From: Gammaproteobacteria bacterium
GTDB taxonomy: Bacteria; Pseudomonadota; Gammaproteobacteria; Eutrophobiales; Eutrophobiaceae
DNA length: 64,000 nucleotides
Assembly: GCA_016193395.1 (NCBI GenBank)
Contig: JACPSH010000001.1
Span: 15,895 to 79,894 of the forward strand
Reading direction: 5' to 3'
Shown here piece by piece: positions 41,404 through 58,937 of the stretch (the stretch's first letter is position 1; every line of letters starts with the position of its first letter). The notes beneath the pieces were generated by a model. That model had not been told where the DNA came from. It was given only the letters and a program-made list of their open reading frames with translations, and did no database searches. The translations under genes were made by a program, and so were the position numbers.

Positions 41404-42790
41404 CCGGTTCCGCCTCGACAATCTGCTGCTCTTCGAACGCAGGTTGCGTCGCGTGCACGAGGACGTCGTAGTACTTCTCTATTCGATCCACGAAGCGGAC
41501 CGGTTCCCAGCCGCGCGCATAGCCGTGCCGGGTCTGCTCGTACCAGTTTCTGTGACTGAGCAGTGGGAGGCGCTGGCGCACGTCCAGCCAGCGATCGGGG
41601 TCGCCGCCCTGTCTCTGCGTCAGGACCCGCGCGTCCTCGAGATGGCCAAAACCGACGTTGTAGGCGGCGAGCACGAACCAGGTCCGGTCCGGCTCGCCGA
41701 TGCGCGCCGGCATCTTCCTGTCGAGCTCCTTGAGATACATCGCACCGCCGCGCAGGCTCTGCAGGGGGTCCAGTCGATCTTTCACGCCCAGGAGGCGTGC
41801 CGTGTCGTTGGTGAGCATCATCAGGCCGCGCACGCCGGTGAATGAGCGCGCATCGACGTCCCAGTGCGATTCCTGGTAACTGATCGCGGCCAGCAGCCGC
41901 CAGTCCAGCCCGAATTCCGAGCCGGTCTGTTCGAACAGTCCGCGATAGGGCGGCAGCCGCTCCGTCATGCGATCGACGAACTGGCGCGAATCGGCGTAAT
42001 CGAACGACTGCACCCTGCCATAGAAGCGGTCGATCAGGGCGGCCAGCTCGCCGTTCCCGTCGATGCGCTCGATGAACGCATCCGCGGCGCGAAGCAGGGA
42101 GAGATCCTTTGACTTGCGCGCCGCCCAGACCAGCGGTTGCGGCGGCGTCAGGTTGAGCGCCGCGCGGATCTCGGGCCGGATCTGGCGCGCATGCGCCAGT
42201 TCATTCGACGGCAGCACGGTGTAGGCGATGCGTCCTTCCTCGACCATGTCCATCAGATCGGCGCTGTCCAACCCCCTGTGGATGTACCAGGACAGGCCGG
42301 GGTGTCTGGCGCGGAGCTGCTCCAGCAACGCGATGGGGATCGTGCCTTCCGCGACGTGCAATTGATCCGGGGCGATCTCGTCGAGGTTTTTCGGGAGCCG
42401 GCCGCCGTTGCGGTACAGGACCTGCCAGGTGACCCAGTGGTAGCTGCGGCCTGCCGCGAGCGGACCGCCTGCGACGGAATCGCGGGTCAATCCCGCGGCG
42501 GCCAGATCGACCCGGCCGCTCAACACGGCGTCGACGATCTCCAGCGGGTTGTTCGCGACGATGACCCGCAGTTGCACGCCGAGGTTGCGCGCGAAGTTCC
42601 ACGCCATCTCGTATTCGATGCCGGTCTCGCCGTCGCGATCGATAAAATACGTGGTCGGGCCGTTGCGCGTGACGATACGCAACTCGCCGCGTTCGAGGAT
42701 CTGCTGGAGTTGCGACTTCGGGGGCGCGCATGCCGCCAGGAACAGACTGGCAAGGAGCGCCAGGGAATGAAGCGGCCGGGTCGATGACAT
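41384..42790 (-). CDS. mltF: membrane-bound lytic murein transglycosylase F
   Basis: The protein has a lipoprotein signal (LFLAAC). It has a PBP-like domain followed by an SLT domain (ISYQESHWD…GLMMLT…AYNVG). I set the start at MSSTRPLH. Confidence 0.8.
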   Translation of the reverse strand: MSSTRPLHSLALLASLFLAACAPPKSQLQQILERGELRIVTRNGPTTYFIDRDGETGIEYEMAWNFARNLGVQLRVIVANNPLEIVDAVLSGRVDLAAAGLTRDSVAGGPLAAGRSYHWVTWQVLYRNGGRLPKNLDEIAPDQLHVAEGTIPIALLEQLRARHPGLSWYIHRGLDSADLMDMVEEGRIAYTVLPSNELAHARQIRPEIRAALNLTPPQPLVWAARKSKDLSLLRAADAFIERIDGNGELAALIDRFYGRVQSFDYADSRQFVDRMTERLPPYRGLFEQTGSEFGLDWRLLAAISYQESHWDVDARSFTGVRGLMMLTNDTARLLGVKDRLDPLQSLRGGAMYLKELDRKMPARIGEPDRTWFVLAAYNVGFGHLEDARVLTQRQGGDPDRWLDVRQRLPLLSHRNWYEQTRHGYARGWEPVRFVDRIEKYYDVLVHATQPAFEEQQIVEAEPATQSLL

Positions 42791-42937
42791 CGGGATGGGT
42801 CCCCCGCTGTAGATGAGTTGCCGCCAGTGGAGAATACTCTCCTGTTTAGAACCCCCGGAAGCGGTTTTTCTGCGTGCGCTGAAAATCTCCCGATCTGTCA
42901 ACGGTTTCGGCCAACCGTTACAATGCGCGCCAGTCTC

Positions 42938-43106
42938 GGAGAGGTGCCAGAGCGGCTCATCATTAGGCGGTCTCGACAAATCGTCAGGATGGACGATTTG
43001 CACGGCCGCAGGCCGCCCGGAGGGCGAGCGACAGAGAAGTCGCGAGTGAAAACCGTTGTGCTCGCGGCGGACGCAGTCCGACGCGCTGTCGAGTGTGGCA
43101 GTACCC
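42938..43106 (+). other. tRNA-Ser-derived fragment (pseudo-tRNA)
   Basis: The first 19 nt, GGAGAGGTGCCAGAGCGGC, are identical to the 5' end of the intact tRNA. GGCGGTCTCGA with a CGA anticodon follows. A 9-bp hairpin (CAAATCGTC…GACGATTTG) is inserted right after the anticodon. GAAAACCGTTGTGC follows, and there is no T-arm or acceptor 3' end. Confidence 0.45.
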
Positions 43107-43196
<90 letters not shown>

Positions 43197-43240
43197 AAAT
43201 CAAAACGGGACCCGAAGTGGTCCCGTTTTGATTTTGAAGA
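43197..43240 (+). terminator. rho-independent terminator
   Basis: The hairpin AAAATCAAAACGGGACC cgaagt GGTCCCGTTTTGATTTT is followed by a T-rich tail. Confidence 0.6.
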
Positions 43241-43330
43241 TGAGCTGGGATTCGAACCCGAGTAGAGGATGACGAATCCCATTGCACAGGAGGTGCAGGT
43301 GCCGCGGCGGCCAGGGATGGCCGGGAGCGG

Positions 43331-43346
43331 CCTCCCTCTCCGCCAA
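43331..43346 (+). repeat. 16-bp direct repeat of the tRNA-Ser 3' end (att-like)
   Basis: CCTCCCTCTCCGCCAA is identical to tRNA positions 43183-43198. Between them, at 43251-43266, lies an inverted T-arm-like GGGATTCGAACCCGAG. Confidence 0.6.
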
Positions 43347-43840: not shown

Positions 43841-43924
43841 GCCATTTGTCGTGGCGCCTTTCGCGATATTTCAGTTGAGAACCTTATAGGGTGGTGATGC
43901 GTGGTAAAGAATAGGCGGTGGGTT

Positions 43925-44794
43925 CTACCCCGTTTCCACGGACAGTTGAGTTAAGACTAATTGTCTCTGTTTGGCGGCCATAAGCTGGCGCCGCCGGCGC
44001 GGATTATGGAACCGCGCGATGTAATCGAAGACATCGGCTCGGGCTTCCGCCCGAGTCTGGTAAATGCGGCGATTGACCCGCTCGCGTTTCAGCAGGCCGA
44101 AGAACCCCTCCATGGCTGCGTTGTCCGCGCAACTGCCCACGGCGCTCATGCTGCACACCAGGTTATGGCCCTTGAGAAAGCGCTGGTACTCACTGCTCGT
44201 GAACTGGCAGCCGCGGTCTGAATGCAGCACCACTGTTGAGCGATCGTCCCGTTGCCACAACGCCATCAGCACCGCCTGCAACACCAGCTCCCGCGTCTGT
44301 CGCGGACCCATGGACCAGCCCACGATAATGCCGGTGCACAGGTCGAGGACAGCGCTCAGATACAGCCAGCCCTCCGCCGTTTCAATATAGGTGATGTCCG
44401 TCACCCATTTCCGGTTCGGTTCACCGGCGCTGAAGTCACGGTCCAGATGATTGGCGATGCCCATTGGCCGCTCGCCCGCGCCCTTCTTGCGCCAGCGCCG
44501 CTGCTGGGGAACACCCCGCAGACCGTGCGCTCGCATCAGTCGCGCCACCCGGTTCTTGCTGCAGTGAACCCCCGCATAGCTGAGGTCCTCCCAGATCCGG
44601 GGCGCGCCCATGACGCCATCACTCTCTTCGTGCAACTTCTTGATACGCCCCAGCAAGTCTTCGTTGAACCTGGCCCGGGCACTCGGCGGCCGTTCCCGCC
44701 AGCCGTAGTACCCGCTCGTAGAGACCCGCAGACACCGGCACATCAGGCGGATGGGGAAGGCTTCGCGGCAACACTCCAGCATGCGGTACTTCAC
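43925..44794 (-). CDS. IS3 transposase OrfB (DDE integrase core)
   Basis: The protein has rve-domain motifs (WVTDITYI…HSDRGCQF…). Confidence 0.85.
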   Translation of the reverse strand: MKYRMLECCREAFPIRLMCRCLRVSTSGYYGWRERPPSARARFNEDLLGRIKKLHEESDGVMGAPRIWEDLSYAGVHCSKNRVARLMRAHGLRGVPQQRRWRKKGAGERPMGIANHLDRDFSAGEPNRKWVTDITYIETAEGWLYLSAVLDLCTGIIVGWSMGPRQTRELVLQAVLMALWQRDDRSTVVLHSDRGCQFTSSEYQRFLKGHNLVCSMSAVGSCADNAAMEGFFGLLKRERVNRRIYQTRAEARADVFDYIARFHNPRRRRQLMAAKQRQLVLTQLSVETG

Positions 44795-45078
44795 TTCGAC
44801 GCTTTCGCGAAGAACGCCGCCGCTTCTTGCAAAAAATCCCGCTCCTTCCGCACCCGCGCCAGCTCACGCCTGAGATTCGCCAGCTCCTCGTCCCGGGCCT
44901 TCCCATGGCCTTGGAACGCCTCCTCTCCAGCGCCCGTCACTTCCCGGCACCAGCGGCTCAGCATGGTCGAGTTGATGCCCAGCTCCTGGGCCACCTGTCG
45001 GGCCGATACGCCGGGACTGCTCGCCAATTCCACCGCTTCCCGCTTGAACTCCGCAGAGTATTTCCTTCGTCTCGACAT
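44791..45078 (-). CDS. IS3 transposase OrfA (HTH)
   Basis: The protein begins MSRRRKYSAEFKREAVEL…. It has a leucine-zipper tail and overlaps orfB in the -1 frame. Confidence 0.85.
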   Translation of the reverse strand: MSRRRKYSAEFKREAVELASSPGVSARQVAQELGINSTMLSRWCREVTGAGEEAFQGHGKARDEELANLRRELARVRKERDFLQEAAAFFAKASK

Positions 45079-45150
45079 GACACACCTCCCGGGCCATTAT
45101 TGCCCTTTCGGATGTGTCCGCGAAATCGGGGTAGAACCCTGGGGGTGTGG

Positions 45151-45350
45151 TTAAGCGTAGGTGACAACCAGAAATGCTACGCATTTGCCACGTCCGATGT
45201 TCTCGATACAGTGACGTACATCCGCCCGATAGTGAGCGGAGAATCCCTTTTTCAGGATGCACTGCTCAGCATTTGAAGTGACACGCACGGATGAGCCTGT
45301 AATGAACAAAGATATTCGCGACCCAGCTGCTTTTTTCGAGTGGGCAGGAG
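45151..45350 (-). pseudogene. 3' fragment of an XRE-cupin regulator paralogue
   Basis: The fragment encodes …[45 protein letters not shown]. This is near-identical to the C-terminus of the regulator at 54267-54863, and the DNA identity includes AGGATGCACTGCTCAGCATTTGA. The N-terminal HTH part is absent. It lies 12 bp from the IS3 end. Confidence 0.55.
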
Positions 45351-45738
45351 CCCCAAGTGTGGGACAGGGACATGATGCGGTGCCCAGCCGGAGGACCAAT
45401 CCCCAGTAGCGAGGAGTGGCATTCACCTGGAAAACGCATCGTATCGCTCATCAAGGCAGCGGTTAAGGCTGCCGCTTCCTCACCGTTATCGAGTTCTTCC
45501 TTCATTTCAAGTGGCTGCAGACGGACAGAACATTGCGGGTCGGATCCCAAAGGCCCGATGGGCCGGTTCACCTCCGGGTAAGGGCGCTTCCGGGCAAAAA
45601 GTTGGAAGCCGAAATACTTCCGTTAATTCATGGGTTTATGCCATCGTATGGGTGGGCTTAAGAATCCTAATCACGGAAAAGGCCACCTCACTCGTCTATT
45701 AGGGCTAGGTTTACCCAAGAGCTAGATTCGAGGATCGC

Positions 45739-46311
45739 ATGGCGCGCGAGGACACGATCTACAGCGCTTTCCTATCATGGCGCGACTACCTCGCCCGCAT
45801 CGTCTCGCGCATCGTCCCGCCGCATGATATCGAGGACATAGTCCAGGAGACCTACGTCCGCGCCTGCCAGTTTCAGTCGAAACATGCGATCAAGTCGCCA
45901 AGCGCGTTCATGACCAAGATCGCACGAAATCTGGCCTTAGATTACGTCAAGCGCGCCGAGTGGCGCCTTACTTCTTCCATCGACGGCGATGCTGAGTCGC
46001 AGCTGGTCCAGATCCAGCAGCCGGCAGACGAGCCTTTTGACAAAGTCGCCTCGGGCGAAGAATTCGCACATTTCTGCGAGGCGGTGCGCCAGTTGCCGAT
46101 CCATTGCCGCAGGGTGTTCGTACTGAAGAAGGTCTACGGTCATTCCCAGCGGGATATCGCCCGGGAGTTGAACCTGAGTGAGAACACAGTCGAAAAACAC
46201 GTCGCACAGGGCATCAAGCACTGCACGCATTACATGCGCAAACGGTTGGGGACGGACAGGCGCGGCTCGCCCCTCAGACGACGGCCTGTCCTCCGGGAAG
46301 GAGGTCGATGA
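45739..46311 (+). CDS. ECF (sigma-70 family) sigma factor, FecI-like
   Basis: The protein has region 2 (IVQETYVRA) and region 4 (HSQRDIARELNLSENTVEKHV). Its stop overlaps the fecR-like start. Confidence 0.8.
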   Translation: MAREDTIYSAFLSWRDYLARIVSRIVPPHDIEDIVQETYVRACQFQSKHAIKSPSAFMTKIARNLALDYVKRAEWRLTSSIDGDAESQLVQIQQPADEPFDKVASGEEFAHFCEAVRQLPIHCRRVFVLKKVYGHSQRDIARELNLSENTVEKHVAQGIKHCTHYMRKRLGTDRRGSPLRRRPVLREGGR

Positions 46312-47423
46312 TGAGCAACGTTTATCAGATGCCCGAGCGCCGGTACCCCATTGATGAAGCCGGAGACTGGCTGGCCAAGCTCGACCGGGGGCTGAACGAG
46401 CAGGAGGAAGCAGCACTACGGGAATGGCTGGCTGCGGATCCAAGGAACCCGATGGCGCTGATGGAATCGGCGAGTGTATGGGACAAGATGGATTCGCTCT
46501 CGCGCCTGGCCGAGCTGTTCCCGCAGCCGGTGGCTCGCTCTGCTGATGCCACTGCGGCGTTTCCCGCCTCTTCGAGGGGAATGCTCATGAGGGTCGCATA
46601 CGCAATCGCAGCAACGGTCGTCATCGCTATGCTCGCGGGCTATTGGGCTGTCGCATACTACACGCCAGAATCAAGCATACCGGCCGTTGCCGAGGACACG
46701 AACGAGCGAATATTCCAAACCGCGGTCGGCGAGTATTCCACGGTTATGCTGGCGGACGGGTCGCAGGTGACTCTGAATACCAATAGCCTCGTCCGGGCAA
46801 GGTCCACGGCGCGTCGGCGTATGTTGTCCCTCGAACGCGGCGAAGTCTACGTCCAGGTCGCACACGACCCGTCGCGACCCTTTAGCGTTTGGGTCGGCGA
46901 CCGGCTTGTGGAGGCGGTGGGCACTGCCTTCAGCGTCGCGATTACCGAAGATCAGCGCATAGAGCTAATTGTCACGGAAGGCAAGGTTGTCGTCGGCCTA
47001 GCCGACAAGAAGCCAGCGAAGGCCCCAGAGAAATTCGAACGTGCTCCTGCGCCGCCGGAACCCGCTGGCGTGGCTAATTCGGCAGTTACGGTCTCCGCCG
47101 GCGAGCGGCTCGTGCTGGATGAGGATAGCGGCAAAGTTGAGGCCGTCGAGCCCGAGGAACTGGAGGTCCGGCTCTCTTGGCGCGGTGGCAACCTGGTCTT
47201 CCGCGGCGAGTCCCTGGCGGAGGCGCTCGCTGAAATCGAGCGCTACACCCGCGTGGAATTTGTCATTCAGGATGAAGCCCTGAAGAAAGTGCGAATCGTC
47301 GGTATGTTCAAGGCTGGCGACGTGGACGGCTTGTTGGCGACGCTCCGCCAGAACTTTGACATTGCATATCAGCGCGTGAGCGAAGAAAAAGTCATCCTGA
47401 CGAATAGCTCTGCGCATCCGTAA
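46308..47423 (+). CDS. FecR-like anti-sigma/sigma regulator
   Basis: The protein has an N-terminal cytoplasmic domain, one TM segment (VAYAIAATVVIAMLAGYW) and a periplasmic FecR domain (LADGSQVTLNTNSLV). Confidence 0.8.
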   Translation: MMSNVYQMPERRYPIDEAGDWLAKLDRGLNEQEEAALREWLAADPRNPMALMESASVWDKMDSLSRLAELFPQPVARSADATAAFPASSRGMLMRVAYAIAATVVIAMLAGYWAVAYYTPESSIPAVAEDTNERIFQTAVGEYSTVMLADGSQVTLNTNSLVRARSTARRRMLSLERGEVYVQVAHDPSRPFSVWVGDRLVEAVGTAFSVAITEDQRIELIVTEGKVVVGLADKKPAKAPEKFERAPAPPEPAGVANSAVTVSAGERLVLDEDSGKVEAVEPEELEVRLSWRGGNLVFRGESLAEALAEIERYTRVEFVIQDEALKKVRIVGMFKAGDVDGLLATLRQNFDIAYQRVSEEKVILTNSSAHP

Positions 47424-47519
47424 TTCTCACGAGGGCTGGTGAGCTGGCCATGCGATCATGCGACGGGCCAGTAGAACCGCTCCACCTTCGGCAGGGTACA
47501 AGGGGAAGGGGGTTGCGTA

Positions 47520-50159
47520 TTGAGGCCGTTGCCCTTTCAGTTCATTTTCGTCTCTCGGCGGAAACCAAGTCCTGATTCGTCTATCTATCCAGCGCGCAAA
47601 AGACGCGCTGTCGTGGGAAGTGATAGGGGACTTGTCCGATCCCTCGGTATCGGTTTGCTGTTGGCTGTCGCACAGCTCTCAGCGACGATGGCCAGGGCAG
47701 ATGATGCCGATCCAAGCGAGAAAGTCTCCTTCGATATCCCGCGGCAACGAGCGGACTTAGCGCTCATCGAATTCGCCAAGCAGGCGGATGTGACCTTCAT
47801 CTTCCCACTCGATGAGGCACAACGGAAGACATCCAATCGCGTTGTTGGGGATTACACCCGCGACGAGGCGATTCGCATCCTGCTCAAGGGCACGGGCTTG
47901 CGGCCGGAATTCGATGAGCATGGTGCTTTGGCAGTCCGCTCTAATCGTGATGCTGACACTACTAAGGGGAACGCCATGGGCAGAAGCGAGCGGAAAAGGT
48001 TCTCAGGCATCGCTGCAGCGATACTGTCTATATTCAGCAGCCAGGGTGTTGTTGGACAGGAAGCAGAAGCAAACCAAGGTTTGGGCACGGTCGAGGAGGT
48101 AATCGTTACCGCTCAGAAGCGAAGTGAAGACATTCAGGACGTCCCCGTACCCGTTACCGCTGTCGACGCAACCAGTCTTATCTCCAAGAATCAAGTTCGC
48201 CTCCAGGACTATTTCAGCAGCATCCCGGGACTGAATCTCACGACTGCCGACTTTAGCCGCGCCCAAGTATTGACGATTCGTGGACTTACCACTGGAGGAT
48301 ACTCGAATCCGACAGTCGGAATCACTGTGGACGATATACCCTATGGTTCATCGACCTCATGGGGGTTGGGTGTCGAGGCCCCAGACATCGATCCGAGCAT
48401 ACTGGATACGATCGAAGTCTTGCGTGGACCGCAAGGTACGCTGTACGGAGCCAACACCCTCGGCGGATTGCTCAAATACGTCACCATCGCCCCGTCAACG
48501 GATCTATTCACTGGTCGTTTGCAGGCGGGAGTTAGCAGCGTCAAGAACGGTGATGATGTCGGATACAGCATTCGTGGCGCGGCCAACTTGCCGATCAGCG
48601 ATTCTCTGGCTGTTCGTGCTAGTGGATTTACTCGAGGTGACTCGGGGTATGTAGACAATATTCGAAATGGAGATGAAGGTCTTAATCAGGTAGCTGTTAT
48701 TGGTGGACGGATCTCTGCATTGTGGCAACCATCTGAGTCTGTCTCGTTGCGTTTAAGCGCTATGGGTCAGGAAACGGATGCAGATGGAAACTCTGAGGAA
48801 TACCTCGCGGCAACTTTGGGGCGATTTGACCAGGACGCTGTGCCTGGAACAGGGCGATACAAGAAGACGGTCGAAACCTATGGAGCTAACCTCAACGTAA
48901 GGATTGGTAGCATCGATGTTACATCGCTAACAGGTTACAACATTAACTCGCTGAGAGACGATTGGATAGACTTCTCTCCCGCGTTTGGAGGGGCAGCCCT
49001 CGCCACATTTGGCGTCGCCGGCGCCCCGCTTGTCGAGGATATCGAGACAACCAAACTCACCCAGGAGGTTCGGATTTATGCACCGATCGGGGAGCACTTC
49101 GAGTGGTTGATTGGGGGTTTCTACACCGATGAGGAGAGCGACATCGTACAAGATGCGATGGCTGCAGATCCGGTGACAGGCTCGATCGTCGGTTCGCTAC
49201 TTCATTTGCCCTTTACCGCCACGTACGAGGAGATCGCGGCATTTACGAACCTGACGATTAACGTGACCGATCATTTCAATGTCCAGATAGGTGGGCGGTA
49301 CGGTACCAATGATCAAACATTCAATCTGAGCTTGAGCGGACCCCTAATCGGCGGGTCGACGATTGTACAGCCGGAAATCCAGACGGACGACAGCTCATTT
49401 ACGTACCTAGTTACGCCACAATATCGGTTTTCACAGGATGTCATGGTATACGGGAGATTTGCGTCGGGTTACAGACCCGGCGGACCGAACTCTACGATCG
49501 GCGCACCATCGAGCTTTGGGCCCGACACAACTCAAAACTACGAAATGGGCGCGAAGGGCAGTGTCTTTGATGACAAGCTAACCTTCGATGCATCGCTCTA
49601 CTATATCAATTGGAAGGACGTTCAAATCCACCTTGTGGAAGGCGGATTCGGGTATTTTGCAAATGCCGGTCGCGCTCGCAGCCGTGGCGTAGAACTTTCG
49701 TTCACGGCGATTCCGCGTACCGGTCTGACAGTTTCGGGATGGGGCTCGTGGAATGACGCGGAGCTAACGGAGGACTTCCCGAGTACCGCAGACGCCTTCG
49801 GAGAATCTGGAGATCGCCTGCCTGGGAGCACACGGTATTCCGCGAACCTGTCGATGGACCAGGAGCTTCCCTTGCCTAGCAACCTTATCGGGGTGATTGG
49901 TGCATCGATTAGCTACGTAGGCAAACGTTCGGGTTTGTTCGGACCCGTCAGCGCCCCACAAAGGCAGATCTATCCCGCCTATACGAATGTCGATGTGCGC
50001 GCAAGTGTGAAGTATGAGTCCTGGTCGGGAGATTTCTTTGTAACAAATGTGACTGACAAGCGCGGTGAGCTTGGAGGAGGACTAGTTACACTTCACCCGA
50101 CTGCGTTCACCTACATACAACCGCGAACGTTTGGTTTCTCATTGTCGAGGGACTTTTAG
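47520..50159 (+). CDS. TonB-dependent transducer (receptor with N-terminal STN signalling domain)
   Basis: The protein has a TTG start with an AAGGGGAAGGGGG Shine-Dalgarno sequence; a GTG at 47613 is an alternative. It has a signal peptide and an STN domain (FDIPRQRADLALIEFAKQADVTFIFP). A plug with a TonB box follows, then a 22-strand barrel ending …FSLSRDF. Confidence 0.8.
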   Translation: MRPLPFQFIFVSRRKPSPDSSIYPARKRRAVVGSDRGLVRSLGIGLLLAVAQLSATMARADDADPSEKVSFDIPRQRADLALIEFAKQADVTFIFPLDEAQRKTSNRVVGDYTRDEAIRILLKGTGLRPEFDEHGALAVRSNRDADTTKGNAMGRSERKRFSGIAAAILSIFSSQGVVGQEAEANQGLGTVEEVIVTAQKRSEDIQDVPVPVTAVDATSLISKNQVRLQDYFSSIPGLNLTTADFSRAQVLTIRGLTTGGYSNPTVGITVDDIPYGSSTSWGLGVEAPDIDPSILDTIEVLRGPQGTLYGANTLGGLLKYVTIAPSTDLFTGRLQAGVSSVKNGDDVGYSIRGAANLPISDSLAVRASGFTRGDSGYVDNIRNGDEGLNQVAVIGGRISALWQPSESVSLRLSAMGQETDADGNSEEYLAATLGRFDQDAVPGTGRYKKTVETYGANLNVRIGSIDVTSLTGYNINSLRDDWIDFSPAFGGAALATFGVAGAPLVEDIETTKLTQEVRIYAPIGEHFEWLIGGFYTDEESDIVQDAMAADPVTGSIVGSLLHLPFTATYEEIAAFTNLTINVTDHFNVQIGGRYGTNDQTFNLSLSGPLIGGSTIVQPEIQTDDSSFTYLVTPQYRFSQDVMVYGRFASGYRPGGPNSTIGAPSSFGPDTTQNYEMGAKGSVFDDKLTFDASLYYINWKDVQIHLVEGGFGYFANAGRARSRGVELSFTAIPRTGLTVSGWGSWNDAELTEDFPSTADAFGESGDRLPGSTRYSANLSMDQELPLPSNLIGVIGASISYVGKRSGLFGPVSAPQRQIYPAYTNVDVRASVKYESWSGDFFVTNVTDKRGELGGGLVTLHPTAFTYIQPRTFGFSLSRDF

Positions 50160-50204
50160 TATCGCAGACTTCAACGACGGCTTGACGTACGGCTAGGAAC
50201 CACT

Positions 50205-51803
50205 GTGCAACCAGACGTTTCGGTCTCCCACCGCGGCGCCACATCCGTAAACTTTTCCGAGGCGACGACCGACAGGATCTTTGCGCATCTCAAAGACACC
50301 ACAGCTCCTGGCGCCGCGGTTGGAATCGCCGTTGAAGGAAAGGTTGTATACAGGAAGGGATTTGGGCTCGCTAACATGGAAATGCCCCTAGTGCTCTCTC
50401 CAAACGTTCGCATGCGCATTGGGTCTATCTCAAAACACTTTACATCGCTTGCGTACTTGTTGTTGTGCGAACGTGGACAAGCAAGAGCTACAGAACCAAT
50501 CCAGCGCTATCTGCCTGAAGTACGCAGCAATGCGAACACGATTACTCCGCTTCATCTGATGGGTCATATTAGCGGACTCAGAGATATATTCGATGTCGTG
50601 TGGAACTTCTCGGGCACGGGCCGAGCTAGTTCGAGCGCTGATCTATTGCGTCTCTATCGTAGGATTGAGGACATCAATGCATCTCCAAGCATAGAGTGGC
50701 GATATAACAATGGTGCCTATCTACTCTTGACAACCCTAATCGAACGTACCACCGACCGGTCTCTAGAGGAGGTACTGAGAGAGTCACTTTGTGAACCACT
50801 CGGCTTGTACGACACGTTGCTACGGCGGTATGACAACGACTTTCTACCAAACTGTGCGACGCTTCACATGACCACACATTCCGGCGAGTTCTCCAAGTCA
50901 TATCTTGGGGTTGCACTCGCAGGTGAAGGAGGCTTGGTATCAACCGTGGACGACCTGCTTCGCTGGCTTAGACACATGAACTCGCCGACGGTCGGAAATG
51001 GAACGACATGGAAGCTTATGAAAACTCCACTTGTGTTGAAAAATGGCACGTCAACTGGCTATGGACTAGGCCTTATCACTGGCGAGTACCGCGGTGTGGA
51101 GACATTATCTCACGGCGGATCAGTTATGGGTGGCAACGCACATATGTTGAAGGTTCCTTGTGTTGACCTTGATATTGTAGTGATCGCCAATCGACATGAC
51201 ATTGTATCTGCGGACTTGGTCGAGCGCGTAATGGATGCGTGCATTGAGGGGTTAACGCCGCTCTGTGAAAGTGACTGTCCATTGTCAGAGGGAACTTTCC
51301 ACTCGCCAGCGACTGGCCGGCTTGTGCAGCTTTTCGGCAAGGGAGGAAAGCAATTCGCTTCAGTCGATGGATGGGACTTTCAGGTCGTTCGGAATAACAA
51401 CGGAGAGCTCATTCCCATCTCTAGACTGTCATTCCTCAAACTGACGATTAATCTAACAGGACCGGTTGAAAGACCCCATACTCTCCACCTAGTAGAGTTC
51501 GGTAATCGTGATGAGTTGCTTGCAGTCTCTTGCAACCCCGGAACGAAAGAACCAGATGAATTCGCTGGTTGCTACCGGTCCTCCGCTGTGGACGCAGAAC
51601 TCACGTTTCATGCAGACGGATTGAGGGCGTCTGGGCCGTTCGGCTCGGTTGACTATGACCTCGAGCATTTAGCAGAAAACATCTGGCGGGCCAAGTCAAG
51701 GACGCCTATGCCATGGGGAGGGATTCTCACGTTTGATTCAAGGAAGTCCAGTGTGCTGTTCTTCTCGCCTCGTACGCGAGCACTCCCCTTTCACCGTTTG
51801 TAA
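50205..51803 (+). CDS. S12-family serine hydrolase, D-aminopeptidase (DAP)-like
   Basis: The 532-aa protein has no signal peptide. It has the SxxK motif (RIGSISKHFT), HISGLRD, HGGSVMGG and a C-terminal beta-domain extension. Its length and domain order resemble the Ochrobactrum D-aminopeptidase. It has a GTG start. Confidence 0.65.
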   Translation: MQPDVSVSHRGATSVNFSEATTDRIFAHLKDTTAPGAAVGIAVEGKVVYRKGFGLANMEMPLVLSPNVRMRIGSISKHFTSLAYLLLCERGQARATEPIQRYLPEVRSNANTITPLHLMGHISGLRDIFDVVWNFSGTGRASSSADLLRLYRRIEDINASPSIEWRYNNGAYLLLTTLIERTTDRSLEEVLRESLCEPLGLYDTLLRRYDNDFLPNCATLHMTTHSGEFSKSYLGVALAGEGGLVSTVDDLLRWLRHMNSPTVGNGTTWKLMKTPLVLKNGTSTGYGLGLITGEYRGVETLSHGGSVMGGNAHMLKVPCVDLDIVVIANRHDIVSADLVERVMDACIEGLTPLCESDCPLSEGTFHSPATGRLVQLFGKGGKQFASVDGWDFQVVRNNNGELIPISRLSFLKLTINLTGPVERPHTLHLVEFGNRDELLAVSCNPGTKEPDEFAGCYRSSAVDAELTFHADGLRASGPFGSVDYDLEHLAENIWRAKSRTPMPWGGILTFDSRKSSVLFFSPRTRALPFHRL

Positions 51804-53137
51804 TGAGCCGAGAGGCGATATCTGTTCACGCGCGCTGGGCAGCGCGAGACGTGCAGTTCGCACTACTCATAGTCGCAGCAAGTGTCGCGCTGTACTCACG
51901 TACCGCAATTGGCCCGCTCCAAGAGGCCATTAGGATCGCTCTTACCCTTAGTGACAACCAGATGGCGATACTGCAAGGTTCTGCATTGTCTTTACCGACA
52001 CTAGTAACGGCAGTCCCTCTCGGCCTCGCCATCGATCGCTACTCGCGGGTGCGGCTGCTAGTTGTAATGGCCGCGCTTGATATTCTTGGCAGTGTTATGA
52101 CTTCCTTCGCGGACGACTTCACGATTCTAGTCGTCGGCCGATGCATAGTCGGATTTGCCGTCGGTGCAATTTGCACGGTCGTCTTTTCACTAGTGGCTGA
52201 TTTGTACATTCCGAGCCAACGAGGACGAGCGGGCATGGTTGTGGTAATCGGCCAGTTCGTTGGAATGTCCGCAGCATTCGGGATTGGGGGTTTTCTGCTT
52301 TCCACTCATGCGCCGGAATACTGGCGCGTGGCAATGCTGTGGTTAAGCGCACCGCTGATACCAGCATGTTTGTTAATGCTGATACTCAATGAGCCAGCTC
52401 GTGCGGAAGTAATCATAGAGCGACCATCGATTCGTCAAACATGTAGGCAGCTATGGGCGTATCGTGGAGTGATCGGCACGCTTGCTGCCGGCATTGTGAT
52501 GGTGGAGGTCGGCGTAGGTGCCGCACTGACGTGGTCCGCCCCTGCACTGCTGCGAAAGTTTGCGATGTCACCAGCCCAAGTGGGCTCGACGGTCGCAATG
52601 GGCCTGTTGATCAGTGGTGTTCTAGGCCCCGTGGTCGGAGGCATGGTCTCAGATATGTGCCAAAGAGCTGGCGGTCCTAGTGCAACACTCCGGGTGATGG
52701 CGGCCCTAGCACTGAGCGCAGCTTCGGTCGGCTGCTTCGCCATTGCATCAACCGTAGCATTGGCAAGCACGCTTCTCATCGTGTTCATGACAGTCGTGTC
52801 CGCGCTAGCAGTAATGGGGACGGTGATATTTACAATCCTTATGCCAAACGAGATCCGTGGTTTGTGCTTAGCGCTATTGTTCGGGATGTGCCTGTTGTTC
52901 GGCCTTGGCCTCGGTCCGTTAGCCGTTAGTGTAGTGTCGGGAGCTATCGGTGGTCCGGAGAACATCGGGAGGGCGTTGGCAATTGTTTGCGTGATGGCGG
53001 GGCTCCTTGGTGCGGCATTGTTTGCGACTGGCAGGCAAGCGGTTTCGGCGCAATCCAAGCGCATGTTGGGTGCTGGCTCCGCGGGGCGTAATGGTGATCT
53101 TGTTTCTCGCGGGGTATCGGTTCAAGGGTCGGTGTAA
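51803..53137 (+). CDS. MFS transporter
   Basis: The protein has 12 TM segments and the MFS motif (PLGLAIDRYSRVRLLVV). Its ATG overlaps the preceding stop (TAATG). Confidence 0.8.
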   Translation: MSREAISVHARWAARDVQFALLIVAASVALYSRTAIGPLQEAIRIALTLSDNQMAILQGSALSLPTLVTAVPLGLAIDRYSRVRLLVVMAALDILGSVMTSFADDFTILVVGRCIVGFAVGAICTVVFSLVADLYIPSQRGRAGMVVVIGQFVGMSAAFGIGGFLLSTHAPEYWRVAMLWLSAPLIPACLLMLILNEPARAEVIIERPSIRQTCRQLWAYRGVIGTLAAGIVMVEVGVGAALTWSAPALLRKFAMSPAQVGSTVAMGLLISGVLGPVVGGMVSDMCQRAGGPSATLRVMAALALSAASVGCFAIASTVALASTLLIVFMTVVSALAVMGTVIFTILMPNEIRGLCLALLFGMCLLFGLGLGPLAVSVVSGAIGGPENIGRALAIVCVMAGLLGAALFATGRQAVSAQSKRMLGAGSAGRNGDLVSRGVSVQGSV

Positions 53138-53241
53138 GGGATCTAGTTAGTTGAATTCTGTGCCGACCAAATCTTGTTCTCAGCGGGCTATCCGGTGAGC
53201 GTGAGATGTTGGGCGCGAGCAATTATCGGAGGATAAAGAGG

Positions 53242-54231
53242 TTGAAGAGATCGATACGACTTAGCTTGCACATCGAAACGTGGCCTGCGAATCGGCCGTT
53301 CCGTATCACAGGCAAGACTTGGCAAGCGTTCGAGGCTGTTGTAGTCGAAGTTGCTGACGGTTCCTATGTAGGGAGGGGAGAGGGACTGGGTGTTTACTAT
53401 TTCGGTGAGACCGCGACGAGCATAACCAAGCAGATCGAGGACGTAGCGGCAAATATCGAGGCGGGGATTAGCCGTGATGAGCTCCAAACCTTACTGCCGC
53501 CGGGCGGCGCGCGGAATGCTGTCGATTGTGCACTATGGGATCTGGAGAGCAAACGGCTCGGAGCGAGTATATGGCAACTCACGGGAGTGCATGCTCGACC
53601 GGTGACGACTGTTTACACTATCGGAATCGAGGAGAATTGTCAGCTTATGGCCGCACATGCAGCGGAGGCTGCGAAGTATCCAATTCTTAAGGTCAAACTT
53701 GACGGTCACGAGCCCCTTCAGCGCGTCCAAGCCATCCGTCGGGTCCGACCTGATGCACGCCTAATAGTTGACGCTAACCAAGCATGGACATTTACCCAGC
53801 TCACAGAGTTGTTGTCGCCATTGTTGGAAAGCGGGGTTGAGATGATCGAACAACCGTTGGCACTCGATGCAGATGACCAGCTCGAAGGATTCAAGGCAGC
53901 GATCCCGCTTGGTGCAGATGAGTCCTGTCAAGATCGACGGGACTTGAATCGGGTAGCGAAACGTTACCAGGTCATCAATATCAAATTGGATAAGACCGGT
54001 GGGTTGACCGAGGCGTTACTCTTGGCAGATGAGGCGCGGGCTCTTGGGCTGGACCTGATGGTCGGGAGTATGGGGGGCACATCGCTGAGCATGGCACCAA
54101 GCTTTGTCATCGCCCAGATGTGTCGGTTTTTCGACTTGGACGGTCCACTGTTGCTCAAGCACGATCGGTTGCCAGGCATGAAGTACGATGGAGTCAATGT
54201 CAGCCTCCCGGACCCAACGTTCTGGGGCTAA
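53242..54231 (+). CDS. enolase-superfamily dipeptide epimerase / N-succinyl-amino-acid racemase-like
   Basis: The gene has a TTG start with an AGGAGG Shine-Dalgarno sequence. The protein has the catalytic residues of the MR/MLE subgroup (KVKLDG, DANQAW, EQPL, GADES, KLDKTGG). Confidence 0.75.
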   Translation: MKRSIRLSLHIETWPANRPFRITGKTWQAFEAVVVEVADGSYVGRGEGLGVYYFGETATSITKQIEDVAANIEAGISRDELQTLLPPGGARNAVDCALWDLESKRLGASIWQLTGVHARPVTTVYTIGIEENCQLMAAHAAEAAKYPILKVKLDGHEPLQRVQAIRRVRPDARLIVDANQAWTFTQLTELLSPLLESGVEMIEQPLALDADDQLEGFKAAIPLGADESCQDRRDLNRVAKRYQVINIKLDKTGGLTEALLLADEARALGLDLMVGSMGGTSLSMAPSFVIAQMCRFFDLDGPLLLKHDRLPGMKYDGVNVSLPDPTFWG

Positions 54232-54266
54232 TCAGGCTGATCGACTCCTCGTCATGGGGCAAGGCT

Positions 54267-54863
54267 CTATGCGTAGGTTACGACGAGAAAAGCAATGCAC
54301 TCTCCGCGACCGATATTTTCGATGCAGTGAGGCACGTCTGCGCGATAGTGCGCCGAAAACCCCTTCTTAAGGATGCACTGCTCAGCATTTGAGGTGACAC
54401 GCACGGCACCGCATTGCACCGTTAGAAACTCCCGTGTCCCATTGAAGTGGGGAGCGCTTTTTAGCGCGGCACCACGCTTAAGCCGAAGTTCATAGATCTC
54501 GATATCCTTTTCCATGTGAAGTGGCGAAAGTGTGCGGATGTGGCAATTGCTATCTGATCGATACAGGTAGGCAGGATCATCGGCTGAAACTACCTCGATC
54601 TGAGACCTGCGGGAGGGTTCATCTACCAGTTCCCCCAATGAAAGGGAGAACGCTTGGGCAATGCGGGAGGCCACGGCAACGGTGGGATTGGCCTCTCCAC
54701 ACTCGATCTGGCTCAGCCTAGACCGGCTAACCCCACTTGCCGCTGCGAGTTGGTCCAGCGTCCAGCCACGTTCTTTGCGTTGCTGCTTGACCCGTGCACA
54801 AAGTCGCCGGGCGAACTCATCACCCTTAATGACTTCGGCAGACTTCCTTTCTCTACGCGGCAT
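54267..54863 (-). CDS. XRE-family HTH + cupin-domain transcriptional regulator
   Basis: I set the start at MPRRERKS. The HTH is [22 protein letters not shown] and the C-terminal cupin is …[17 protein letters not shown]. The protein is convergent with the cluster. Confidence 0.75.
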
Positions 54864-55005
54864 CCGGACTCTCGGGGGATAGCAGTCCAGTATATAGGAA
54901 AGTTGTCTTGTATATCGCCGGGCGCCGAGCGTACAATCTGTCAAACTTATATCCACGATACAGGAACTCACCCAACCCAACCAAACGTTGGGAGGAACCC
55001 CCCTT

Positions 55006-56029
55006 GAAAGCGCTCGTCAAGCGTCGTGCGGAGCCTGGGCTATATCTGGAGGACGTCCCGGAACCCACAACGGGACCAAATGACGTGCTGATCCGCGTCA
55101 AGCGCGCCGCCATCTGCGGGACCGACCTGCACATCTATAACTGGGACGCCTGGGCGCAGGAGACCATTCCCGTGCCCATGGTGGTGGGCCACGAGTTCGC
55201 CGGTGAGATCGTTGAGGTCGGCGAGAACGTCAACGACTACCGGCCCGGGATGATCGTGTCCGGCGAGGGGCACATCGTCTGCGGGCGCTGCCGCAACTGT
55301 ATGGCGGGCCGTCGCCACTTGTGCCCGCACACCAGCGGCATCGGCGTCAACCGCGCCGGCGCCTTTGCCGAATTCATCGCCATCCCCAATGCCAACGTCT
55401 GGCAGCACAGCAACGGCATTGATCTGGACATCGCCGCCATTTTCGATCCCTTCGGCAATGCCGCGCACACGGCCCTGCAATGGGATCTGCTGGGAGAGGA
55501 CGTCCTCATTACCGGCGCAGGTCCCATCGGCATCATGGCCTGCTCCATTGCGCGGCATGCGGGTGCGCGGCACGTGGTGATTACCGATGTCAATGATTAC
55601 CGGCTGGAACTGGCCCGGAAACTCGGCGCAACGCGCACCGTGAACGTGCAGCGGGAGAAACTGGCCGACATTCAGAAGGAGCTGGGCATGCTGGAAGGCT
55701 TCGACGTGGGCCTCGAGATGTCCGGCAACGAGCAGGCATTCCGCGACATGGTGAACAATATGTGCCATGGCGGCAAAATATCCATGCTCGGCATTCCCGA
55801 GAAGACCATGGCCATCGACTGGCGCAAGGTGGTATTCAACATGCTCACCATCAAGGGTATCTACGGCCGCGAGATTTACGAGACCTGGTACAAAATGTCA
55901 GTGATGGTGCGCTCGGGCCTGGACCTCTCGCCGGTCATCACGCACCGCTTCCACTATACGGAGTTCCAGCAGGGCTTCGACGCCGTGCTGTCCGGTCAGT
56001 CTGGCAAGGTCGTGCTGAATTGGGAGTGA
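55006..56029 (+). CDS. tdh: L-threonine 3-dehydrogenase
   Basis: The gene has a TTG start with a GGGAGGAA Shine-Dalgarno sequence. The 341-aa protein can be aligned end-to-end with E. coli Tdh ([12 protein letters not shown]…GHEFAGE…GAGPIGIMA…GKVVLNWE). Confidence 0.9.
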
Positions 56030-56047
56030 CTGGCACACCTCCTTTTC

Positions 56048-57235
<1,188 letters not shown>

Positions 57236-57257
57236 ATAAGGTATCAGGTTTATTTCG

Positions 57258-57350
57258 GTCATTCCGGCGAAGGCCGGAATCCAGTAGAAATTATCCACTG
57301 GACCCCGGCTTTCGCCGGGGTGACGGCTTCTTTCGCCGGGGTGACGGCTT
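57258..57350. repeat. GTCATTCCGG…CCGGAATCCAG hairpin plus 2x21-bp tandem repeat
   Basis: The hairpin GTCATTCCGGCGAAGGCCGGAATCCAG shares motifs with 31434-31480. CCCCGGCTTTCGCCGGGG forms a hairpin. CTTTCGCCGGGGTGACGGCTT is repeated twice (57309-57329, 57330-57350). Confidence 0.6.
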
Positions 57351-57380
57351 AAGTAAGTGCCATTGGCGAGTTTGTAATCC

Positions 57381-58532
57381 ATGTCTATAGCGCCAACGCT
57401 TGAAGCGGATCGACCGAAGCGGACCGCGCTGTATCCACTTCTTGAGTCTGCGGGCGCGAAGTTCGTCAGTTTTGCGGGCTACTGGATGCCGCTGCAGTTC
57501 CCGCAGGGGATCCGGCACGAACACCTGCACACACGCAGTCGGGCCGGTCTATTCGATATTTCCCACATGGGGCAGATCCTGATCACCGGAGCCGATCCGG
57601 CCACGAGCCTGGAAGCATTGGTCCCGGGCGACATTTGCGGTCTGTCGGGATACCAGCAGCGCTACACCCAGTTCACCAACGATCGCGGCGGCATCAGGGA
57701 CGATATCATGGTCACGCGGCTGCCGGAGGGATTGTGGCTGGTTGTGAATGCCGCGACGAAGGCAGCCGATCTGACGTACCTGGATGGGAACCTGGAAGGC
57801 CAGTGCGCCGTCAGCGCGCAGCAGCGCGCCCTGCTTGCATTGCAGGGTCCGGAAGCAGCCAGGGTGATGGAGAGTCTTTGCCCGGGTGCGGAACGGATCC
57901 CGTTTTTGCATTGCACCCGGTTGCTGCTTGCCGGCGCGCCGGTGCTGGTGCACCGCTGCGGATATACGGGCGAGGATGGCTTTGAGATCTCAATGGAGGA
58001 AGAGAATGCGGAATCCTGCGCCCGGGCGCTGCTGCAAATGCCGGGTGTCGAACTCGTCGGACTGGGCGCCAGGGACACGCTGCGGCTCGAGGCCGGCATG
58101 TGCTTGTATGGACAGGATCTGGACGAATCCACCACGCCCGTGGAGGCACGGTTGGGCTGGACGATTGCCCGCAGGTTCAGGCAGGAGCCCTCAGCCGCTC
58201 GCTTTCCGGGCGCATCCATCGTGTTGAAGCAATTGCTTGAAGGCACGGTGCGTCTGCGCGTGGGATTACTTCCGGATGGCCGGACTCCGGCCCGGGCAGG
58301 CACGCAACTGTTCGATGCGGATGAATCCACCGGCGGGCAGGTGACCAGCGGTGGATTCAGTCCGACCCTGGACCGGCCTTGCGCCATGGGATACGTTGCG
58401 ACGCGCTTCTCAAAGCCCGGCACGCGGCTGCTGGCGAAAGTGCGCGATCGGCTGCATGAAGTCGAAGTATCACCGCTGCCATTCGTTCCCCACCGTTATT
58501 TCACTCCAGCCTCGACGAAGGAAACCCTATGA
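57381..58532 (+). CDS. gcvT: glycine cleavage system aminomethyltransferase T
   Basis: The protein shows GcvT family signatures (…FAGYWMPLQF…LFDISHMGQI…CGYTGEDGFEIS…). Confidence 0.9.
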   Translation: MSIAPTLEADRPKRTALYPLLESAGAKFVSFAGYWMPLQFPQGIRHEHLHTRSRAGLFDISHMGQILITGADPATSLEALVPGDICGLSGYQQRYTQFTNDRGGIRDDIMVTRLPEGLWLVVNAATKAADLTYLDGNLEGQCAVSAQQRALLALQGPEAARVMESLCPGAERIPFLHCTRLLLAGAPVLVHRCGYTGEDGFEISMEEENAESCARALLQMPGVELVGLGARDTLRLEAGMCLYGQDLDESTTPVEARLGWTIARRFRQEPSAARFPGASIVLKQLLEGTVRLRVGLLPDGRTPARAGTQLFDADESTGGQVTSGGFSPTLDRPCAMGYVATRFSKPGTRLLAKVRDRLHEVEVSPLPFVPHRYFTPASTKETL

Positions 58533-58906
58533 GTCAATTCAGGTACAGCAAGGATCACGAGTGGTTGCGCGAGGAGACCGCGGGAATTGCAACCGTGGGG
58601 ATCACCGAGTACGCGGCGCAACAACTGGGCGATGTCGTCTTTATCGAGCTGCCTGAGATCGGGAAAACGGTGTCCGGCGGCGACGTCCTCGCCGTCATCG
58701 AGTCGGTCAAGGCCGCCGTGGAAGTCTACGCGCCGGTGAGTGGAGAGGTCGTGGCAATCAATGACCGGCTGGTCGACGAACCGGAACTGGCAAACAAGGA
58801 TCCCCGCAGTCAGGGGTGGTTTCTAAAGCTGCGGATCGCGAATCCCACGGAACTGAATGGTCTCATGGACGATGACGCCTACGCGAAATACATCGCCGGC
58901 TTGTAG
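58529..58906 (+). CDS. gcvH: glycine cleavage system protein H
   Basis: The protein has the lipoyl-lysine motif ([17 protein letters not shown]). Confidence 0.9.
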
Positions 58907-58937
58907 ACGAACTGCCAACGAACGGGAAGTACCACAC

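Follow-up and report, generated by a model that had tools for sequence, protein, structure and literature searches.

A six-gene operon was analysed in a stretch of 64,000 nt of a Gammaproteobacteria bacterium genome (assembly GCA_016193395.1, contig JACPSH010000001.1), which is hereafter called the window and within which all positions are counted. The operon encodes a FecI-like sigma factor of the extracytoplasmic function (ECF) type, a FecR-like anti-sigma factor, a TonB-dependent transducer, an S12 serine hydrolase, a permease of the major facilitator superfamily (MFS) and an enolase-superfamily epimerase. Its role, proposed with moderate confidence, is the inducible uptake and cytoplasmic breakdown of a D-amino-acid oligopeptide, most likely one with N-acylated or peptidyl D-Glu, and it is part of the same explanation, held just as firmly, that the block is a mosaic operon of ~9 kb that was acquired horizontally. 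A sequence-only reading of this DNA had previously suggested the import and processing of D-amino-acid peptides; the gene identities and the neighbourhoods of related genes argue for that suggestion, and it is from them that we infer the function.

Organization and composition of the operon

The six open reading frames (ORFs) all appear in the ORF list on the + strand and at the coordinates at which they had previously been placed, and the identities assigned to them were right, with Pfam and NCBIfam support for each:

45739..46311, + strand: ECF sigma factor, FecI-like, 190 aa (Sigma70_r2, r4_2)
46308..47423, + strand: FecR-like transmembrane anti-sigma factor, 371 aa (DUF4880, FecR, FecR_C)
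47613..50159, + strand: TonB-dependent transducer, revised GTG start (Plug; the long ORF spans 47520-50159)
50205..51803, + strand: cytoplasmic three-domain S12 serine hydrolase of D-aminopeptidase/MlrB fold, 532 aa (Beta-lactamase family)
51803..53137, + strand: MFS permease, 444 aa (MFS_1)
53206..54231, + strand: enolase-superfamily N-acyl/peptidyl-Glu epimerase, DgcA clade, 341 aa (MR_MLE_N/C)

The start of the FecR gene overlaps the stop of the sigma gene (ATGA, 46308/46311), and the hydrolase and MFS genes overlap at the TAATG from which their translational coupling had been proposed. The remaining gaps measure 45-96 nt, the one between the MFS and epimerase genes (68 nt) being the widest among the cargo genes, and the GTG start of the hydrolase is preceded by an AGGAA ribosome-binding site. 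Neither internal terminators in the operon nor a terminator or sigma-70 promoter between the MFS and epimerase genes were found by simple scans, which performed no better than on shuffled sequence. Taken together with the ECF-type promoter motif before the receptor gene (see below), the overlaps, the short gaps and the lack of internal terminators fit co-expression, and co-transcription of the genes is predicted on this basis. Separate expression, which had been named as an outcome that would speak against the proposal, did not come to light.

As noted before, the block is co-directional and AT-rich. In particular, positions 45297-54412 have a G+C content of 0.554 vs. 0.633 in the rest of the window, and the lowest-GC 9.1-kb stretch of the 64 kb begins at 45500. 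The atypical part is limited to the receptor, hydrolase, MFS and epimerase genes, in which the G+C content at third codon positions (GC3) is 0.53-0.60, while the values of the sigma gene (0.75) and the FecR gene (0.71) are similar to those of host genes (0.72-0.83).

The S12 hydrolase

The hydrolase has no signal peptide, and its residues S74/K77 (SxxK), Y167/N169 (YxN) and H303/G305 (HxG) are invariant across 20 homologues. The S12 motifs and the D-aminopeptidase architecture that had been recognized from the sequence were thus borne out, the three domains matching those of the Ochrobactrum D-aminopeptidase (DAP, structure 1ei5). Modelling of the structure, which had been proposed as a check, yielded an AlphaFold2 model (pLDDT 80.8, pTM 0.83) whose best full-length fold match was this same enzyme (Foldseek TM 0.77/0.78), and the profile of the hydrolase family aligned with DAP residues 3-474 (E 7.5e−39). 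A full three-domain match was found solely with D-aminopeptidase, with 479 aligned residues vs. at most 350 for esterases, and the next-best fold matches were D-specific peptidases, namely Lip3 DL-peptidase, Pab87, SurE, R61 and alkaline D-peptidase. To our knowledge, the characterised S12 peptidases are D-specific. No match to Pfam DAP_B or DAP_C was found in the hydrolase at E ≤ 0.001, and the enzyme shares the D-aminopeptidase architecture but is not an orthologue. It is not a conventional beta-lactamase either, an outcome that had been raised as a refutation, as it scored 44.9 bits against a cut-off of 415 for class C beta-lactamase and had D-aminopeptidase as its best fold.

At E ≤ 1e−30, the family to which the hydrolase belongs has 2,982 cluster representatives (clustering at 50% identity). 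The Lip3/Lip7 DL-peptidases, which belong to the same family, were considered as its counterpart and discarded, being secreted and without such clustering.

Conserved neighbourhoods of the hydrolase

The hydrolase alignment was scanned against one genome per species, and the resulting 80 loci, together with metagenome contigs and the window, gave a set of 83 loci. The ORFs within 9 kb of the hydrolase were clustered, and the cluster representatives were annotated. A TonB receptor accompanied the hydrolase in 71 of the 83 loci (co-directional and within one gene in 55), followed in frequency by an MFS permease (54), a YcjG/DgcA-family epimerase (30), an M81 MlrC-like peptidase and a FecR protein (27 each), an ECF sigma factor and an XRE-cupin regulator of a family different from that found in the window (24 each), a DAO-type oxidoreductase (19), an M19 dipeptidase (13), a TetR regulator (11), an S9 peptidase (7) and an amidohydrolase (6).

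The epimerase and the M81 peptidase were almost mutually exclusive, with 2 co-occurrences (Fisher p 1.7e−4), and the FecR, XRE-cupin and TetR regulators tended to alternate among the loci, which together point to several substrate-specific subtypes of one locus family. Moreover, binding proteins of the Opp/Dpp type (SBP_bac_5) were present in six loci, none of which has a TonB receptor (Fisher p 2.4e−6). Overall, a modular peptide-utilisation locus is observed, in which the core of receptor and hydrolase is constant and the regulators and finishing enzymes are interchangeable. The survey of neighbourhoods, which had also been proposed earlier, lends independent backing to the idea of a peptide substrate with D-residues through the gene contexts conserved in these loci.

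The exact order sigma-FecR-receptor-S12-MFS-epimerase recurs in locus L003, where the S12 enzyme is 52% identical to that of the window and where S9 and Pro_racemase genes follow, while L004 and L006 are close variants of this arrangement. In the S12 tree, the window enzyme falls inside a Steroidobacterales-like clade of the L003/L004/L006 type, and these nearest relatives of the hydrolase add S9, S15, M24, M19 and DAO genes. Related loci are also carried by cultured bacteria, namely Peristeroidobacter soli, Variovorax, Novosphingobium and Brevundimonas. Furthermore, a metagenome-assembled genome labelled as Actinomycetota has at least four paralogues of the hydrolase (L005, L008, L009 and L011), each of them accompanied by SBP_bac_5, S9 or amidohydrolase genes and not by a TonB receptor.

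The epimerase

The epimerase scored 414 bits against DgcA, an N-acetyl-D-Glu racemase (NF042940, cut-off 400), while its 260.8 bits against YcjG (PRK15129) were below the cut-off of 343. The two identities that had been named as refuting ones, muconate cycloisomerase and o-succinylbenzoate synthase, did not materialize, with 86.8 bits vs. a cut-off of 335 and 76.2 vs. 200.7, respectively. The catalytic KxK, D, E, D and K and the DxD motif are all kept (LKVKLD, VDANQ, IEQPL, ADES, NIKLDKTGG and FDLDGP), and the sequence of the 20s loop, FRITGK, is that of the DgcA clade, the corresponding loop of YcjG and 4gfi being I(A/S)RG(S/T). The best solved relatives are PDB 4gfi and then 1jpd (YcjG). On sequence criteria, the enzyme is thus DgcA-type and not an L-Ala-D/L-Glu epimerase of YcjG type; of the earlier assignment to the latter type, the complete set of catalytic residues stands and the type itself does not.

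DgcN-DgcA is a D-glutamate catabolic pathway of marine Proteobacteria, and the window epimerase is 57-62% identical to DgcA proteins adjoining DgcN (DUF1611). It is therefore conceivable, if unlikely, that the enzyme is a true DgcA that would act on N-acetyl-D-Glu supplied by a DgcN encoded elsewhere, in free D-Glu catabolism, and that its gene would have landed downstream of an unrelated module of receptor, hydrolase and MFS genes. Its score lies inside the range of the DgcN-adjacent DgcA proteins on NF042940 (408-427 bits) and above that of the epimerases of other S12 clusters (325-384), and a neighbour-joining tree places it among the DgcN-linked sequences. Moreover, arrangements of TonB receptor, DgcN and DgcA recur, and the 68-nt gap that precedes the gene is, as stated, the widest of the cargo genes. 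However, no DgcN homologue was found in the 64-kb window by tblastn with two DgcN queries, the simple scans gave neither a terminator nor a sigma-70 promoter in that gap, and the epimerase, besides being present in 30 of the 83 loci, occupies the same position after the MFS gene in L003. DgcA-clade epimerases are also found in DgcN-free operons of peptidase, MFS and receptor genes, as in the case of one (58% identity) encoded in an operon of the order STN-receptor/Abhydrolase_3/M14/MFS/S9/S15/S9/epimerase; another relative, at 60% identity, lies next to non-ribosomal peptide synthetase (NRPS) genes and an S15 peptidase gene, again with no DgcN. Membership of this clade is thus not tied to the DgcN pathway.

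Two of the closest epimerase relatives adjoin NRPS genes and S15 peptidases (L091 1-9856 and L095 10001-14063), the NRPS genes being found with MbtH/FkbH or as a single A-T-C module, and a link of the epimerase to non-ribosomal peptide metabolism may exist. In two further loci, the DgcN-DgcA pair is directly downstream of a TonB-dependent receptor (L086 4556-8975 and L090 153-3539), which suggests that TonB-dependent uptake feeds the D-Glu pathway too. L086 also encodes an XRE-cupin regulator, a 654-aa beta-lactamase-family protein and an Amidohydro_3 enzyme.

Signalling module and transport

The sigma factor matched Sigma70_r2 (41.4 bits) and r4_2 (51.5 bits), as well as the sigma70-ECF superfamily model (75.6 bits, above the cut-off of 42.9). 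Against the FecI, FecR and FecA equivalogs, the sigma factor, the FecR-like protein and the receptor reached 45, 90 and 41 bits (cut-offs of 260, 385 and 1100, respectively). The receptor has a Plug domain (63.7 bits), and it had also been described as carrying an STN signalling domain. The Pfam STN match (18.3 bits) is below the cut-off of 28.4, but the N-terminal extension, a putative signalling domain, aligns with known transducers, with receptor residues 43-147 matching FecA 8-108 (E 7e−11) and residues 66-343 matching FpvA 43-290 in the comparison with solved structures. Furthermore, the orthologous receptors of L003, L006 and L007 (44-45% identity) carry a Pfam STN match.

An ECF-type promoter motif first emerged when the sequences between the FecR and receptor genes were compared across related loci. 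The pattern GGAAW-N13-CGTCT has three matches in the window vs. 0.22 expected, and none of 100 shuffles reached three. Two of these matches, obtained by pattern search, belong to the operon:

45675..45697, + strand: ECF-type promoter motif GGAAA-N13-CGTCT, 42 nt upstream of the sigma ATG
47560..47582, + strand: ECF-type promoter motif GGAAA-N13-CGTCT, upstream of the receptor gene

The first of them predicts autoregulation of the sigma gene. The third match (21456-21478, − strand) was rejected as a promoter, since it lies inside a + strand gene of the 23S_rRNA_IVP family and is probably due to chance. In 7 of 8 Variovorax loci (L075-L082), the motif precedes the sigma gene and also the receptor gene; L082 is the exception, without an exact match in front of the receptor gene. 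These Variovorax loci also present a third, divergent copy of the motif before the sigma gene, located on the opposite strand, and an ExbB-like gene downstream of the cluster, so the Variovorax regulon may be larger than the operon.

The position of the motif also bears on the receptor start, which had been placed at 47520. As the motif at 47560-47582 falls downstream of TTG 47520, the first codon of the long ORF, GTG 47613 is the most likely start of the receptor. From there the protein has, in order, a classical signal peptide (ATMARA/DD), the putative signalling domain, a TonB box (EEVIVTA), the plug and the barrel.

Sets of FecI, FecR and STN transducer are classically iron systems, and the uptake of a peptidic xenosiderophore has to be weighed. 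The trio would then sense a ferric peptide siderophore with D-residues, the MFS permease would import it, and the S12 enzyme and the epimerase would dismantle its backbone with the release of iron. The best solved-structure matches of the receptor are FyuA, FpvA, FhuA and FoxA, and its best NCBIfam subfamily is TonB-siderophore; the NRPS genes beside two of the closest epimerase relatives and a PF00756 esterase (Fes/IroE family) in 6 related loci agree with such a role. On the other hand, the TonB-siderophore score (133 bits) is below the cut-off of 223.5, no Fur box with ≤3 mismatches was found in the 64-kb window, and no MFS of siderophore type, reductase or periplasmic binding protein was identified with NCBIfam. 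Moreover, the partners in related loci are catabolic (M81, M19, DAO, S9 and aldehyde dehydrogenase), the loci without receptor pair the hydrolase with Opp/Dpp-type binding proteins, and the regulators alternate with XRE-cupin and TetR types, as is typical of catabolic loci. An iron-related role is consequently regarded as improbable.

Regarding the MFS permease, it matched MFS_1 (75.1 bits) with only weak NCBIfam matches, none of them to the AmpG, POT or siderophore MFS families. It is weakly similar to anion:cation symporters and to aromatic-acid and organic-anion symporters.

Proposed function

In the mechanism proposed for the operon, an extracellular peptide would bind the TonB-dependent transducer, whose putative N-terminal signalling domain would relieve the FecR-like anti-sigma factor. 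The ECF sigma factor would then fire the two GGAAA-N13-CGTCT promoters, one driving its own gene and the other the receptor, hydrolase, MFS and epimerase genes. The receptor would move the peptide to the periplasm and the MFS permease onward to the cytoplasm, where the S12 peptidase, with its D-aminopeptidase/MlrB fold, would cut at the D-residue. The DgcA/YcjG-family epimerase would subsequently invert the alpha-carbon of D-Glu in X-D-Glu or N-acyl-D-Glu, and ordinary L-specific peptidases or deacylases would complete the breakdown.

Several observations weigh against this mechanism. The hydrolase is only 20% identical to 1ei5 and scored 118.7 bits on the NCBIfam DAP model (PRK13128), whose cut-off is 443, and esterases and amidases are likewise found with the S12 fold. 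No paper on this hydrolase family or cluster type, nor an assay of a member, was found in the literature. The epimerase is 45-49% identical to those that accompany the closest relatives of the hydrolase, which is below its identity to the DgcN-linked proteins, so its pairing with the hydrolase in the window may be a recent mosaic. Similarly, the GC3 values may reflect different origins or ages of the sigma/FecR pair and the cargo genes. In addition, no recognisable peptide-transporter signature was found in the MFS permease with NCBIfam, and the S9, S15, M24 and proline-racemase genes of related loci hint at proline-rich peptides rather than at D-peptides.

Two further explanations were considered, both of them very unlikely. 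In one, the operon would take up and hydrolyse a xenobiotic of non-peptide nature (an amide, an ester or a beta-lactam-like compound), with the S12 enzyme acting as an esterase or amidase like EstB, NylB or IS11. The highest-scoring sequence match among solved structures is indeed the esterase IS11, many esterases share the S12 fold and are found among the fold matches of the hydrolase, and the weak similarity of the MFS permease to aromatic-acid and organic-anion symporters would suit such a compound. This is countered by the three-domain match, obtained solely with D-aminopeptidase, by a conserved neighbourhood dominated by peptidases and Opp-type binding proteins, and by an epimerase family that acts on N-substituted glutamate. 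In the other, the scavenging of ordinary proline-rich L-peptides (e.g. of collagen or extensin type), the S12 enzyme would be one more exopeptidase and the D-stereochemistry incidental, as the S9 prolyl-oligopeptidase-family, S15 PepX, M24 Xaa-Pro and Pro_racemase genes of the closest related loci would allow, but all four are absent from the window, D-residues are indicated by the partners epimerase, DAO and M19, and the characterised S12 peptidases, as stated above, are D-specific.

The uptake and breakdown of a D-amino-acid oligopeptide is therefore retained as the preferred explanation. A wider proposal, made only tentatively, is that the locus represents non-iron cell-surface signalling that would sense D-Glu peptides, either fragments of peptidoglycan stem peptides or non-ribosomal peptides, with their TonB-dependent import and their stereochemical salvage as the response. 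The window would then contain one member of a 'D-peptide utilisation locus' widespread in Proteobacteria, in which the TonB receptor and the cytoplasmic S12 peptidase of DAP/MlrB fold form the constant core, while the regulators and the finishing enzymes (epimerase, M81, M19 and DAO) can be exchanged.

Peptides with D-amino acids, from peptidoglycan debris and non-ribosomal peptides, constitute a large reservoir of organic nitrogen that turns over slowly in soil and sea, and we know of essentially no outer-membrane uptake route for them in Gram-negative bacteria; nothing specific on this cluster or on TonB-dependent D-peptide uptake was found in the literature. If the uptake of D-peptides proposed here is right, this locus family would provide a dedicated TonB-dependent importer and signalling receptor for D-peptides, a role would be given to ~3,000 sequence clusters (50% identity) of unstudied DAP/MlrB-like hydrolases, and FecIR-type signalling would extend beyond iron. 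It would also suggest that, besides the products of DgcN, peptidyl- or acyl-D-Glu are substrates of DgcA-type epimerases. The enzymes of the window and their relatives could serve as D-specific biocatalysts, and the cultured carriers of related loci make the D-peptide proposal directly testable.

Insertion borders and neighbouring elements

On each side of the operon lies a copy of the same gene's 3′ end, and the surrounding region, located between an mltF-like gene and tdh-kbl-gcvT-gcvP, is variable and integration-prone. The following features were identified at the borders of the operon:

43107..43196, + strand: tRNA-Ser(CGA) (Rfam tRNA 47.4 bits; ARAGORN)
43920..45139, − strand: IS3-family element (orfA 44791-45078, orfB 43925-44794; NCBIfam transpos_IS3 312 bits, HTH_Tnp_1)
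45152..45296, − strand: left direct repeat (139 nt at 45152-45290), truncated 3′ fragment (last 57 codons) of an XRE-cupin gene
54268..54406, − strand: right direct repeat of 139 nt, 3′ end of the intact XRE-cupin gene
54267..54863, − strand: resident regulator with XRE helix-turn-helix and cupin domains (HTH_3, Cupin_2)

The two 139-nt direct repeats are 81% identical and spaced by 9116 nt, with a nearly identical core of ~37 nt (one mismatch in the alignment) at their inner edge. At the protein level, the last 57 aa of the XRE-cupin regulator recur at 45324-45154 (− strand) with 79% aa identity (tblastn), which agrees with the truncated copy previously noted at the opposite end of the block. 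An ORF at 45266-45571 (− strand) was rejected as this truncated copy for being in the wrong frame, the true fragment being that at 45154-45324. Such an arrangement is the signature of integration via recombination at the XRE-cupin gene.

The regulator itself had been counted as part of the system, which was not borne out. It is divergent from tdh-kbl, and homologues of 62-63% identity are divergently paired with tdh-kbl in two unrelated genomes (L093 and L094), where unrelated genes lie on their other side. For this reason, the XRE-cupin protein was rejected as a regulator of the island and is the resident tdh-kbl regulator and the insertion target, not cargo, its duplicated 3′ end marking the insertion borders. 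The XRE-cupin regulators of the 24 related loci are of a different family, with no tblastn match ≥70 bits. The tdh-kbl-gcvT-gcvP genes (54908-61850) run in one direction and adjoin the regulator, and no glycine riboswitch was reported by Rfam before gcvT (57236-57380) at the gathering threshold.

On the left side, the IS3 element is 13 bp from the left repeat and apparently intact, with 25-nt terminal inverted repeats that are 88% complementary. The low-GC variable region is bounded on its left by the tRNA-Ser(CGA) gene, which was the sole Rfam match over 40-64 kb. The last 15 nt of the tRNA (CCTCCCTCTCCGCCA) are found again 149 nt downstream, at 43331-43345, and this copy resembles a remnant att site that an earlier integrative element would have left as a scar. 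The tRNA 3′ end was rejected as the att site of the present island, since this copy is the only one nearby and the operon is not flanked by the two. A perfect hairpin (43195-43236) directly follows the tRNA, and a long mltF-like ORF (41384-43282, − strand) overlaps the tRNA, so its real start must be further downstream. Plasmids yielded no close relative, the best match having 39% identity.

Comparison with known systems

All the components belong to known families, and partial analogues of the locus are found in FecIRA, the mlr cluster, the murein-peptide recycling of E. coli and DgcN-DgcA. The signalling part resembles the FecI/FecR/FecA system of E. coli ferric citrate uptake and the FpvI/FpvR/FpvA and FoxI/R/A systems of Pseudomonas in its three-part design, gene order and coupled sigma and FecR genes, as well as in a transducer with a putative N-terminal signalling domain and, on the evidence of the motif, an ECF-type promoter upstream of the receptor. 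However, the window proteins score far below the FecI, FecR and FecA cut-offs (45/260, 90/385 and 41/1100 bits), no Fur box with ≤3 mismatches was found in the window, and the cargo consists of peptidase, MFS and epimerase instead of iron transport by a periplasmic binding protein and an ABC transporter. Polysaccharide utilisation loci of Bacteroidota (ECF sigma/anti-sigma/SusC) and the peptide importer RagAB also perform TonB import of non-iron nutrients, including peptides, some of them under trans-envelope ECF signalling. In contrast, the window has no SusD/RagB lipoprotein, its module is of the proteobacterial FecA type, and its processing is cytoplasmic and apparently D-specific.

With regard to the cargo, the recycling of murein peptides in E. 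coli (AmpG, LdcA, MpaA, YcjG and PepD) likewise combines MFS import, cytoplasmic peptidases and an epimerase that converts X-D-Glu into X-L-Glu, and YcjG (1jpd) ranks second among the solved relatives of the window epimerase. Nevertheless, the MFS permease of the window is not AmpG-like, its peptidase is S12 rather than LdcA (S66) or MpaA (M14), its epimerase is below the YcjG cut-off and has the FRITGK loop, and its outer-membrane step would be an inducible TonB receptor. The epimerase reaches the score of DgcA and the 57-62% identity to DgcN-adjacent DgcA proteins given above, but DgcN is absent from the window and the gene lies downstream of receptor, hydrolase and MFS genes. As for the D-aminopeptidase of Ochrobactrum anthropi (1ei5), the hydrolase shares its catalytic beta-lactamase fold with two beta-barrel domains, its SxxK/YxN/HxG motifs and its cytoplasmic location, and differs from it in the low identity (20%), the low score (118.7 vs. 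443 bits) and the lack of a DAP_B/DAP_C match.

The mlr cluster of sphingomonads (MlrA, MlrB, MlrD and MlrC) is a further analogue. In published work, MlrB is described as a periplasmic S12 enzyme of 541 aa that was modelled on 1ei5 at 96% coverage (residues S77/K80/Y171/N173/H307) and that cleaves the Ala-Leu bond of linearised microcystin, with the MFS protein MlrD and the M81 protein MlrC as partners. From the stereochemistry of microcystin-LR, this bond joins D-Ala to L-Leu. Judged by the published description of MlrB, both systems appear to have an S12 enzyme of ~540 aa with the DAP fold and near-identical motif spacing, and both have an MFS partner; in addition, the mlr substrate is a non-ribosomal peptide with D-residues including D-Glu, M81 MlrC-like partners occur in loci related to the window, and the mlr cluster is also low in G+C and on an island. 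On the contrary, MlrB has a signal peptide and is periplasmic, while the window hydrolase has none; the window has neither an MlrA/CPBP-type protease nor M81, with the epimerase where mlr has M81; its MFS is of the MFS_1 type and not of the POT/PTR2 (dipeptide/tripeptide) type; and mlr has neither a TonB receptor nor a sigma/anti-sigma pair. The sequence-only reading had held that no described system has this combination, which needs to be amended, as the same six-gene order is found in L003, the core is widespread and mlr is a described partial analogue. The locus is thus a widespread yet uncharacterised combination of known parts.

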